From Octopus vulgaris (taxonomy: Eukaryota), in contig OX597826.1 of assembly GCA_951406725.2 (NCBI GenBank), positions 46,500,001 through 46,564,000 on the forward strand: DNA of 64,000 bases, read 5' to 3'. Both the position numbers and the translations under genes were made by a program. Below, one piece after another: positions 8,611 through 60,500 of the stretch. The notes under the pieces were generated by a model. The model ran no database searches, had not been told where the DNA came from, and was given only the letters and a program-made list of their open reading frames with translations. Positions within the stretch are counted from its first letter, which is position 1; each line of letters begins with the position of its first letter.

Positions 8611-8646
8611 CTTTCTGTTGAAGAGCGTAGGCTTGAAACGTAAAAG
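8611..8646 (+). ncRNA. Minimal hammerhead-ribozyme-like motif (CUGUUGA core variant) within a ~150-bp dispersed repeat (~8590-8740)
   Basis: CTTT-CTGTTGA-A-GAGC(GTAG)GCTT-GAAAC-GTA|AAAG: stem I CTTT/AAAG, stem II hairpin, minimal AC/GT stem III. A second copy lies at 22050-22175. Confidence 0.55.
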
Positions 8647-9884
8647 ACTTTTTCTTTTCCTGAGCGTTATACTAATACATCTGTTTGTTTTGTACACCAC
8701 CTGTCTTCGTCTTTTGTTTTTTTCGCAAACTCTCACTATATGCCTTTATTGTAGTTGTGGCGCTGTTTTGCCCCAGCCCAGCTTTCAATGACCAAATTTA
8801 TCATGAAAGACATTTTCGGCTTGTCTAGTTTCTATTTTCCTTTTCAGATATAGTAGTACATCTAGAATTATATCAGCTCATGTCTCACACCTTTTCTTAA
8901 ACTTTAGAAAAGTGTGACTTTTAAGAGCATTTTGCTCCTATTTTCAGCGTATCAGGTGAAGACAAGCGAAGCTCATTCATTAATTAGCTAATGATATGTG
9001 ACACTGATACTACAAAACTGCATAATCTGAACATCTGTGAGATGACGTCTACAGATGAGTGGTGGAAAAGAACCGGTCGGAAAATCAGTGCTGGGAAACC
9101 GGTGGGGAGAAAACTATGGACGAGAAAGTAAATTCCATAGGATTGACAACTTTTAGGATAGAGAGAGAGAGGGCCGTTAGACAATGAGGCTTTTCTAAAA
9201 AAAGAAAGAAGGTCGTTATTAATCTTAGTGAAATCAAATGTCTACAAGTGGTAATCCAAACCGTGGCCGTGAAATTGACGTTGATATTTTCTTATCGGCT
9301 TTTCAAACTCAACGCTAAAGCTAATATATGTCTTTCTTATTCAGTATCACGTACTTACACGTATTTAGATTAGATGTGAATGACCTGGTCGGTAATTAAC
9401 AGGTTTAAGAAGTCATTAATGATAATTATCTTATGCACCGTGAATTTCTCATATGTTATGTTTTTAACAATGGGGCAATCAAGAGCTGTCAAACGACAAC
9501 AACGATACAGGCACACACAAACACAAACACACTTACATACATAGACAGACATTCACACACACACGCACGCACACACACACACACACACACATTAGTCATG
9601 TGATAGATTTCCCGCGCGAACCTATAATAACGATTAAAATAAAGCATAGCATTAGAGTATAAGTGTATAGTTTTCATTTACATATGTACATATCTGATTG
9701 GCAAACACTTCGTAATCTTGAAAACTGATGACCACTGAAATAGAGTCGTTTATTATAATCATGGATAGTGTTATTAATCGGTTATTGTTATCTAAATTAG
9801 TGGTACCCCAAACTTATTAATTAATTAAAAATGTTCTGCTTATTTGAATCAATGTTCCGGTATTGTTATCAGTATTTTCATGTA

Positions 9885-10030
9885 AGAAGGCAGCGAGCAG
9901 GTAGAAGCGTTAATCTGCTGTGTAAAATGCTTAGCGGCATTTCGTCCGTTTTAACGTTCTGAGTCCAAATTCTGCTGAGGTCGATTTCGTCGTTCATCCT
10001 TTCGGGGTCGATAAAATAAGTACCAGTCGG
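9885..10030 (+). mobile_element. SINE family A, 3'-truncated
   Basis: AAGGCAGCGAGCAGG...TTCATCCTTTCGGGGTCGATAAAATAAGTACCAG. Confidence 0.8.
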
Positions 10031-10296
10031 GTACCGGGGAAAATAGAACCTATATCCACCCGTTCCAGGAGAAACTACTTCTAGCCGCCTTTGATAGACA
10101 TTTTCGTAGCACATTTTTCATTTGCTGTTCAAGCCGGTGTTTTTGTAGTAAATCAGCTGAGCACTCATAAGACATACCTATCACGATACGTCAATTGACG
10201 AAAGCTCCTAGTATTGTCTCTCTCTCCACTCTTATTCTCCCTCCCTCTCTCTTTCTCTCTCTCACTCTCTCTCTCTCTCTCTATATATATATATAC

Positions 10297-10720
10297 TGTT
10301 TTACTCTTTTACTTGTTTCAGTCATTTGACTGCGGCCATGCTGGAGCACTGCCTTTAGTCGAGCAAATCGAACCCAGGACTTATTCTTCGGAAGCCTAGT
10401 ACTTATTCTATCGGTCTCTTTTGCAGAACCGCTAAGATACGGGGACGTAAACACACCAGCATCGGTTGTCAAGCGATGTAAGGAGGACAAACACACACAC
10501 AAACACACACACACACACACACACACACATATATATATATATACATATACATATATACGACGAGCTTCGTTCAGTTTCCGTCCACCAATTCCACTCACAA
10601 GGTTTTGGTCGGCCCGAGGCAAAAGTAGAAGACACTTATCCAAGGTGCCACGCAGTAGAACTGAACCCGGAACCATGTGGTTGTTAAGCAAGCTACTTAC
10701 CACACAGCCACTCCTGCGCC
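10297..10720 (-). mobile_element. SINE family B, full length
   Basis: Collinear with 772-1195 and 63442-63873. Confidence 0.9.
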
Positions 10721-11741
10721 TATATATATATATATATATATATATGTATATATATATATATATATGTGTGTGTGTGTGTGTATGTATATATGTGTGTGTG
10801 TATATATATATATATATATATACATATATATATGTATGTATGTATATGTGGGTGCGTGTGTGTGAGTGTTTAAAGAAATTATTTTAAAAAGTTTACTGTT
10901 TAATTTTTTTTTTATTTAGATAACAGAATGTCACTAACCTTTGGGAAATAATTTTGAGTACACTATACGCAAACGTCTTCCCCAAGGGTTGGTGACATTC
11001 CGTTATCTAAATAAATAAATAAAAAATAATACTTATAACTTCTAAAAAAGATCTTCCTTTAAATATTGTGACTGTATCAAGTAGTCTTTACAAAAGCTTA
11101 TATATATATATGTGTGTGTATATATGCATATCTATCTACATATGTATATATATATATATATATATATATATATATATATATATACACACACACACTCATG
11201 ATCAATGCTCTTTCTAATTTCTGTTTTTGCTGTGGGGGTATACACAGAAAAAATTGCATTGCGAGCAAATTTTGTCTTTCTATAGAAGGTACGGACACAT
11301 CCACGTGAGTTACCATCTTCGATTCGATTTTACCTTGAAAATCTTGTGTGTACACGACTTTTCACTATGTGCGCTAGTTATGAAATAATTTCTTATCAAG
11401 CAGGTAGTGCATGAAGACATTCCGCATTCCTCATACGAGGCACATAGGCACACAGCTTAGAAGGGGACATTGGCCATGTCCCTTATCGCGCATCAAAGAC
11501 AGGTGGAAGAAAGGGATGGAGTAATCTTCAGAGAAGATGCCAAACCTGAATGGTTGAAGGCACTTAAAAAGCCAGTAAGGAGTATTAAGGTGGTTATTGG
11601 GTTAAGTTCTTCCCACCCAATAACAAGAACGATTCTTTGCAATGGTTTTTCACAAACGCTTTTAAAGTTTTGACTAAACCGAAGCCATGACAGAGTGGGC
11701 CCAAACTCACGTGCCAAAATATTTGCCACTCTATTTGCATT

Positions 11742-59279: not shown

Positions 59280-59328
59280 TATTATTATTTCTAAATCTCT
59301 CTAATGGAGAGATTTAGAAATAATAATA
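59280..59328. repeat. Perfect 22-bp hairpin at the edge of a hammerhead-bearing element
   Basis: TATTATTATTTCTAAATCTCTC-TAATG-GAGAGATTTAGAAATAATAATA. Confidence 0.9.
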
Positions 59329-59423
59329 TTCCTATTTTTGAAAACCAGTGGATGTGTTCCACTGAATATATATAAACCTTCGAATAGACAGTCAACAACG
59401 ACGCCTACTGGGTTCGACTACTC

Positions 59424-59462
59424 CACATTGATAAAGGGCAAATACCTTGAAACTAGTCTGTG
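59424..59462 (+). ncRNA. Minimal hammerhead ribozyme motif (two transitions in the CUGAUGA core)
   Basis: CACA-TTGATAA-AGGG(CAAATA)CCTT-GAAAC-TA-GTC|TGTG: all three stems pair; palindromic ACTAGT stem III; GUC cleavage triplet. Confidence 0.6.
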
Positions 59463-60424
59463 TATGTCTGAAGTATCATGGGGAAGCTGATGACCTCTCG
59501 CGTTCGAAGGTTGTAATTGATGCGGGCTTGTGTGTCACATAGCTAGCTAGAGGCAATGGCCTCTTGGAGCTAATCAACAATTTTTCTGGACTGCCATGCT
59601 AGCTTGGCAATAACTATATATATAGTTATATATATATATATATATTTATCCTTCGAAACGTAGAGTAGATGAAACAATAGCGACTGAAGAAGGGGTTTTT
59701 TCTTTGTGTTAATTGTCCTGTACTCCATTTTTTTGTTGTTTTTAAAATAATGTCCAGTTCCTTTGTTTTGTGTCTATGTTTTCGTTTCTCTTTGTGTTCG
59801 ACGTCCCTTTGGTGTCCTGTACTCATATATGCGTGTATATGTACATGTAGAGGTAGGTACGTACATATATGTTTATATATATGCATATGTTTTATTTCAT
59901 TTATTAATATATATATATATATATATGTGCATATATATAACTACACACACATATATATATATATATATATATATATATATATATATATATATATATATAT
60001 ATATATATATATACTATATATACATACATACATATATATATACATATATATATATATATTTATATTTATATATATATATATATATACATACATATATGTA
60101 TAAATATGCATATATGCATACAAGCATACATGCATACATACATGCATACATACATATATACATACATACATACATACATACATACATACATACATACATA
60201 CATACAGACAGACAGACAGACATACATAAATATATATATATACATATATCTTTTAAAGAAAATGTTTCTCCCAGCGTTCACTATTTTCCTCTCGTTCTGG
60301 TCGAACGACCCTCCATGTTTGTTTTCGAGCGGTTCGGGTGTATGTCTCTACTGTCATGTTTTTGTTCCCAACTTTTGTTCCCTCCATAAATCCTAGAATT
60401 TATTTTAGAATTTATGGGAGCAAC

Positions 60425-60500
60425 TGTCTTTGAAGACTCATATTTTCGTTGAATGCTCGAAACGAGGAGTAGATAGACAGCCGACAGCTGATGAAGGGTC
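60425..60500 (+). ncRNA. Degenerate hammerhead-like motif followed by a second CTGATGAAGGG core
   Basis: CTGTCT-TTGAAGA...ATGCTC-GAAAC-GAGGA-GTA|GAT-AGACAG...CTGATGAAGGG; the same layout is partly retained at 59650-59696 and (reverse complement) 13872-13920. Confidence 0.4.

Follow-up and report, generated by a model that had tools for sequence, protein, structure and literature searches.

It has been reported that minimal hammerhead ribozymes reside in the pseudo-long terminal repeats (pseudo-LTRs) of metazoan Penelope-like elements (PLEs), and that solo minimal hammerheads, the known bulk form in metazoan genomes with thousands of copies per genome, show no cleavage as monomers and low cleavage as dimers (Cervera and de la Pena 2014, PMC4209133). 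In one supplement file of that study the hosts named include two other molluscs but not octopus. Elsewhere the hammerhead of an octopus PLE, Hydra-1_Obim, is already tabulated (PMC8557442 File S2), and one PLE assayed in vitro did not need its hammerhead for insertion (PMC11167929). Here we describe hammerhead-like motifs in 64,000 nucleotides of the Octopus vulgaris genome (GCA_951406725.2, contig OX597826.1, positions 46,500,001 to 46,564,000 of the forward strand), a stretch that we call the window and in which all coordinates are given. A preliminary description, made from the letters alone, had listed five blocks with a minimal hammerhead layout, A to E, and read them as a retrozyme-like system of PLE ancestry. 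All five blocks lie where it placed them, and the layout holds for A to D and not for E. A further block, F, was absent from that description. We propose, with a probability of roughly 70%, that five of the six blocks (A, B, C, D and F) represent minimal type I hammerheads of the PLE 3' end (the pseudo-LTR), derived from several unrelated families; this reading includes the account of block E given below. The five survive as solo copies, 5'-truncated and in most cases damaged.

Block D is the only intact one. Its family copy (59307-59610, + strand, with a short 5' inversion at 59290-59328) holds a complete minimal hammerhead at 59424-59462 with the U3-A8 core variant. Both cores are also intact in C and F. 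Block F (22506-22565, - strand) has a stem I of 6-7 bp, a 15.2-16.2 mismatch and a damaged stem III palindrome, and lies within a unit of about 462 nt bearing a terminal direct repeat (22188-22277 and 22664-22739; 58 nt at 91% identity plus a short extra match). Block C (38414-38505, - strand) is a Hydra-type hammerhead with C3 at 38496, G12 at 38435 and its site at 38422; its stem III includes one G-U pair, and it is the exception to the rule, seen in A, B, D and F, that stems I and II adjoin the cores, since its stem I is interrupted (4 of 6 pairs) and its stem II carries a long insert. Block B (12208-12254, + strand), whose tail extends to an (AC)n tract at 12322, keeps CTGATGA, a 7-bp stem II and the stem III palindrome AGCT, with a damaged GAAA. 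The first copy of family A (8611-8741, + strand) ends in a T-rich tail and has its type I layout at 8611-8646, with stems I and II of 4 bp each, the stem III palindrome ACGT and the core CTGTTGA (A6U) in place of CTGANGA. Its second copy (22050-22174, + strand) starts at 22050, as the preliminary description had indicated, and is 85% identical; it begins within the core as GTTGA, lacks stem I, has U6 in common with the first copy and is damaged in the cleavage-site region. The F unit (22188-22739, - strand) stands tail to tail with this second copy. Three further statements of that description are borne out: several blocks have a palindromic stem III (perfect in A, B and D), most copies carry core or stem damage, and the blocks are unrelated in sequence, the closest of the 15 pairs among the regions of A to F, A-C, being matched by 3 of 200 shuffles.

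The blocks resemble the published minimal hammerheads of PLE pseudo-LTRs in their type I order, the commonly short stem I, the extra base after A9, the palindromic stem III of 1-2 bp, the U3-A8 variant and the distribution over many unrelated families in mostly solo copies, and the likeness extends to G10.1-C11.1 (PMC4209133). Unlike that consensus, D has A10.1-U11.1 and both copies of A carry A6U. The shared A6U weighs against our proposal, as changes at A6 are reported to lower hammerhead activity, the natural A6C variant cutting at less than 0.1 per minute (PMC3088659); our literature search found no statement on A6U in hammerheads. On the same side stands the fact that from the window sequence no family was traced to a full-length PLE.

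Chance matching in AT-rich repetitive DNA is, in our judgment, a very improbable source of the motifs, and for A, B, D and F such a reading is already unlikely. Both motif scorings were designed post hoc, with the blocks already known, which favors the chance explanation, as do several other results: half cores taken alone show no enrichment (the 11 in the window are reached by 31 of 100 shuffles) and constitute weak evidence, 6 of 8 stretches have unremarkable folding z-scores, and Rfam gave nothing at the gathering score and no hammerhead at E<=10, either among the 150 of 579 matches listed or among all 16 of a second listing. The Rfam matches were set aside as microsatellite-driven miRNA matches. 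Full motifs behave differently from half cores. A strict type I scan of the window found 2 matches scoring at least 8, a number reached in 0 of 40 shuffles (1 match in the reversed window), and a scan tolerating one lesion found four (B, D, A and F) against a shuffle mean of 0.18 and a maximum of one per shuffled window. None of 60 shuffles reached four and the reversed window held none; at the lowest threshold the five observed were equalled by 1 of 60 shuffles. The consensus match, down to G10.1-C11.1 and the extra base, and the majority letters of family D described below also argue against chance. Neither type I scan recovered block C or block E, a scan demanding a 3-nt loop 3 recovered none of the five reported blocks, and exact-pattern scans gave no match in metagenome contigs, prokaryote genomes or viral contigs.

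We examined family D in sequencing runs, placing contigs of 4 of the 24 listed runs on 59290-59900 only; summed depth here is not copy number, and statements on variants in this interval rest on the 40 of 95 variant rows listed. Family D is multi-copy in all four runs. Its majority letter at 59447 mends stem II (86583 of 91072 depth in run X1) and that at 59463 lengthens stem I to 6 bp (2533 of 2879), while changes at 59424 and 59425 preserve G-U pairs and no core change is seen. Summed depth in X1 is 59k-83k over 59416-59457 versus 3k-5.5k in two bins either side. No two-sided stem change appears among these rows, only one-sided, pairing-compatible ones. This speaks against our proposal, and so do a difference at 59455 in about half of the D depth, which breaks the central palindrome pair, and depth peaks outside the motif at 59311-59352 and 59521-59583. 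Opposite-strand joints in the family resemble PLE 5' inversions. A second core-like CTGATGA, at 59487, was rejected because the majority letter of the family at 59490 is a different one. One frame of 59305-59367 (+ strand), upstream of D, may by its motif spacing be the C-terminal end of a Neptune-type GIY-YIG domain.

A coding trace of a PLE is a broken Hydra-clade element at 39085-39790 (- strand), with a linker and a GIY-YIG endonuclease in two frames with stops, 5'-truncated ahead of the reverse transcriptase core. The GIY-YIG relic that had been placed at 39215-39790 is real: a profile-free search with it found four relatives (E 2e-7 to 3e-4) that match back at E 3e-15 to 8e-5, one of them named Octopus vulgaris and one carrying PF01541, while Pfam gave no match on three relic frames. 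It carries the Hydra motifs, namely a CxCX5C linker, CxxC and CxH, and by hand count 28 of 54 residues are identical to Hydra-1_Obim. An initial assignment to the Nematis clade was replaced by Hydra after comparison with the published Hydra motifs. The linker and endonuclease motifs are those of Hydra-clade PLEs such as Hydra-1_Obim of Octopus bimaculoides, and (TA)n targets are also in common (Craig et al. 2021, PMC8557442). Block C lies 3' of the relic on the same strand and, compared by eye with File S2, resembles the Hydra-1_Obim hammerhead; both are 3' hammerheads with CTGAAGAG and a 4-bp stem III. The locus differs from Hydra-1_Obim in belonging to another family, in its long stem II insert and in its longer distance between reading frame and motif: block C and the relic are separated by 600-700 nt that include a (CA)n tract, compared with about 100 nt between stop and motif in Hydra-1_Obim, a difference that counts against the assignment. 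Because of this distance, despite the likeness and the shared strand, the link between block C and the relic is one that we infer.

For A, B, D, E and F we likewise infer a PLE origin. According to the literature, in tandem or two-molecule RNA the palindromic stem III would pair between copies and the RNA would be cut after NUH, and the PLE endonuclease and reverse transcriptase would insert copies at AT-rich targets, often stopping early. The single genomic copies in the window are most likely inert. The ancestry from several unrelated PLE families suggested in the preliminary description agrees with our analysis, whereas the preference for microsatellites suggested with it is not shown by motif distance: the distance from motif to microsatellite is not above chance in the window (median 115 versus 177 nt, P=0.29), which is unremarkable because 18.7% of the window is microsatellite. 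Copy ends of the E family do adjoin TA runs.

A retrozyme-like system, as had been proposed, does not describe these blocks, which lie in no tandem array and whose layouts are minimal. Non-LTR retrozymes (Cervera and de la Pena 2020, PMC7229834; Li et al. 2026, bioRxiv 10.64898/2026.07.22.740005) are alike in having type I hammerheads in non-coding units of a few hundred bases that are likely PLE-derived. They differ as tandem repeats with a hammerhead per unit and abundant RNA circles, compared with dispersed solo minimal motifs here, and their hammerheads are canonical (PMC7229834). Among 148 tandem arrays in the window, 5 have a period of at least 30 and none overlaps a block; because retrozymes are tandem units, we do not file A-D and F as such. 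These blocks work like, and probably are, PLE minimal hammerheads. An alternative is that certain families, namely A, D, E and F, consist of non-autonomous elements whose ends are fixed, mobilised by PLE proteins and only rarely passing through tandem units or RNA circles. A joint of 59578 back to 59307, found in one contig each of runs X1 and X8, is consistent with a head-to-tail copy of D, yet it occurs in 1 of 4681 X1 contigs placed, and partial tandems and inversions are normal forms of PLE insertion (PMC8557442). The terminal redundancy of the ~462-nt F unit points in the same direction, as do the two E-family copies whose start lies about 8 nt ahead of GAAAC; at 61122, however, a half-motif that is unrelated likewise begins shortly before GAAAC. 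The depth of the E-family copy D2 (0.1-2.0 million summed in X1) would suit an element of this kind, and so would the hundreds of unclassified SINE families of Octopus vulgaris (PMC13282606), but that depth is maximal near the 3' end, as in truncated retrocopies. We therefore consider mobilisation with fixed ends unlikely and retain the reading as solo minimal hammerheads of PLE 3' ends. The half-motif just mentioned (61110-61320, + strand) is the 3' half of a Hydra-type hammerhead, with a GAAA block, a 4-bp stem III, GTA and a T-rich tail. It begins right after a (TA)n run and stands between two copies of a 250-nt repeat (60858-61106 and 61317-61570), possibly a long target duplication.

The family of block E is a separate one; it is very abundant and has a conserved CUGANGA 24 nt after GAAAC. 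This downstream position is why E was misread in the preliminary description: as a type I layout its stem II and cleavage triplet fail, and no type I scan recovers it. The window holds four further copies. D2 (59647-59898, + strand) starts about 8 nt before GAAAC (59655) and reads CTGAAGA at 59684; it is very abundant in all four runs. The copy at 13730-13925 (- strand) starts about 8 nt before a damaged GAAA and has CTGATGA at 13884, that at 32210-32520 (- strand) retains an upstream part and CTGATGA at 32361 with the GAAA block deleted, and that at 32940-33080 (- strand) is a short 3' end with an inverted 5' segment. Across the four aligned copies, 10 of 11 columns of CTGANGAAGGG are invariant, with variation only at N7, and in three of the four aligned sequences CTGANGAAGGG lies about 24 nt past the GAAA position.

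Six possible orders of the hammerhead blocks have been named, of which types SGC and CSG are validated; SGC is known from metatranscriptomes only and CSG from two metagenome sequences, neither being reported there from the genome of a known organism (Eckert et al. 2023, PMC10085705). Block E keeps NUH, GAAA and CUGANGA intact in the order S-G-C (60294-60296, 60459-60462 and 60488-60494). Its candidate cleavage block (60281-60312, + strand) comprises a stem III 3' strand (60281-60295), H17 (60296) and a stem I 3' strand (60297-60303), followed by a 3-nt linker and a strand (60307-60312) complementary to 60495-60500. Further downstream, the remainder of the block (60454-60501, + strand) supplies the GAAA block, with G12 at 60459 and the stem III 5' strand at 60462-60476, and the CUGANGA block, with a stem I strand at 60482-60487 and the core at 60488-60494. 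When both cores are held constant, the highest-scoring site upstream, 60295, allows stem III, stem I and the third helix to pair in parallel order with spacers of 1 and 3 nt, stem III having up to 15 pairs with mismatches and stem I six pairs with one bulge. When the upstream segment was shuffled 1500 times, one shuffle equalled this three-helix score, which was devised post hoc, as did 1 of 3168 background sites. The S-G-C order, the 1-nt site between stems III and I and the 3-nt linker are those of the published permuted hammerheads, whereas these measure 77-81 nt and E spans 220 nt with a weak or displaced stem II (PMC10085705). We regard it as close to an even bet that E is a decayed, non-circularly permuted (type SGC) hammerhead at the 3' end of a Naiad-like PLE, whose parent would cut after 60296. 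Other orders were discarded by inspection or by score: type II (G-S-C) for E and D2 because all three copies inspected by eye lacked stem I, type III because no GAAA lies past the downstream stem, and type GCS for D2 as not significant (P 0.15), the majority letter at 59791 weakening the pairing.

Much also tells against the permuted fold. Stems I and III of E alone give a P of about 0.08, the same as the control D, and an ungapped scan of all six orders scored 10.5 against a shuffle mean of 10.0, which is not significant. The third helix, a post hoc addition, stops 146 nt short of GAAA. For stem II, direct pairing yields four pairs, two of them G-U, and the stronger partner is the 6-bp helix; the energy table of the stem tests was entered by hand. 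The only other copy with an upstream part, at 32 kb, keeps the site letters and forms no stem I, with its GAAA block gone; two copies have no upstream block, and no Naiad coding remnant or open reading frame was seen beside E. A serious competitor, to which we allow a little less than even odds, is that E and D2 are conventional type I minimal hammerheads cut short in loop II, or else remnants without activity, with the downstream CTGANGA and the upstream complementarity left over from rearrangement or due to chance. In D2 the sequence is GAAAC-GTA, which is the canonical minimal signature, and the rows listed for 59647-59725 contain no variant; two of the three tests of the SGC fold are not significant. 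The GAAA block has a further complement at 60319-60332, which shows that short inverted copies do occur in the E element. What this competitor leaves unaccounted for is that no run in the family is better conserved than the downstream core, which varies only at N7; that the three upstream strands stand in parallel order and so are not producible by one inversion, with a spacing (1 and 3 nt) that matches type SGC (PMC10085705); and that E and the 13.9 kb copy read ACGAG past the GAAA position, not ACGTA. As a separate observation, the near-perfect complementarity of 60319-60332 (+ strand) to 60454-60463 could permit an inhibitory alternative fold.

The permuted reading of E led to a comparison with Naiads, PLEs that have been described as lacking canonical hammerheads, eight of them being flagged for a half core (Craig et al. 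2021, PMC8557442). About 330 bases of each of 39 published 3' ends from its supplement were read by eye, with no program. Six ends, all from nematodes (Naiad-1, -2 and -3_Nbra, Hcon, Hpol and Asuum), show a complete C-S-G hammerhead with both cores and NUH exact, a stem I of 5-6 bp, a stem II of 4-5 bp, a stem III of 6-11 bp, a linker of 2-5 nt and a helix flanking the CUGANGA block, and stem sequences differ between families. The full order, the short linker and the flanking helix are those of type CSG (PMC10085705). The nearly identical Naiad_Obim and Naiad_Ovul show S-G-C, with a 6-bp stem I, a 5-bp stem III and a stem II of only 2 bp, and Naiad_Esco (squid) and Naiad_Ptep (spider) have stems I and III in the same order without stem II. 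The remaining 29 ends gave nothing clear or were incomplete in sequence. Octopus and squid Naiads share with the E family a GAAAC that precedes CTGATGA by 19-24 nt close to a T-rich 3' end, and (TA)n flanks; they differ in that cephalopod Naiads are described as remnants (Craig et al. 2021) and D2 is very abundant, and no coding link or clear sequence homology joins the two. Taken alone, the nematode CSG folds, by eye from the published consensuses, seem to us very probable. Tentatively, and with rather less assurance, we suggest that Naiad PLEs carry non-circularly permuted hammerheads (CSG in nematodes, SGC in octopus) and that the E/D2 family is such a 3' end. The association of Naiads with permuted hammerheads is probably unreported, our literature search, which had most subscription journals outside its reach, having found no paper that makes it.

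The window also contains other repeats. Related fragments at 12420-13642, 16894-17192 and 39936-40744 have translations that may resemble Tc1/mariner transposase, and block B lies between two such fragments. Two abundant SINE-like families, each present in many copies, occur at 770-1194, 10284-10718 and 63438-63879, and at 89-524, 36589-36947 and 62175-62434. Fragments of LINE-type reverse transcriptase are found at 14303-14983 and 26467-27240 (both + strand; RVT_1 at E 2e-9, with zf-RVT below the cut-off).

For the known class of minimal hammerheads, A-D and F add octopus members. Should the permuted reading be true, non-circular RNA permutations would for the first time be linked to the genomes of known animals and to the life cycle of a mobile element, and type CSG would gain varied natural examples. 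Standard descriptors would then miss a class of genomic ribozymes and, if Naiads do carry permuted forms, the retention of ribozymes across PLEs would be broader than thought.

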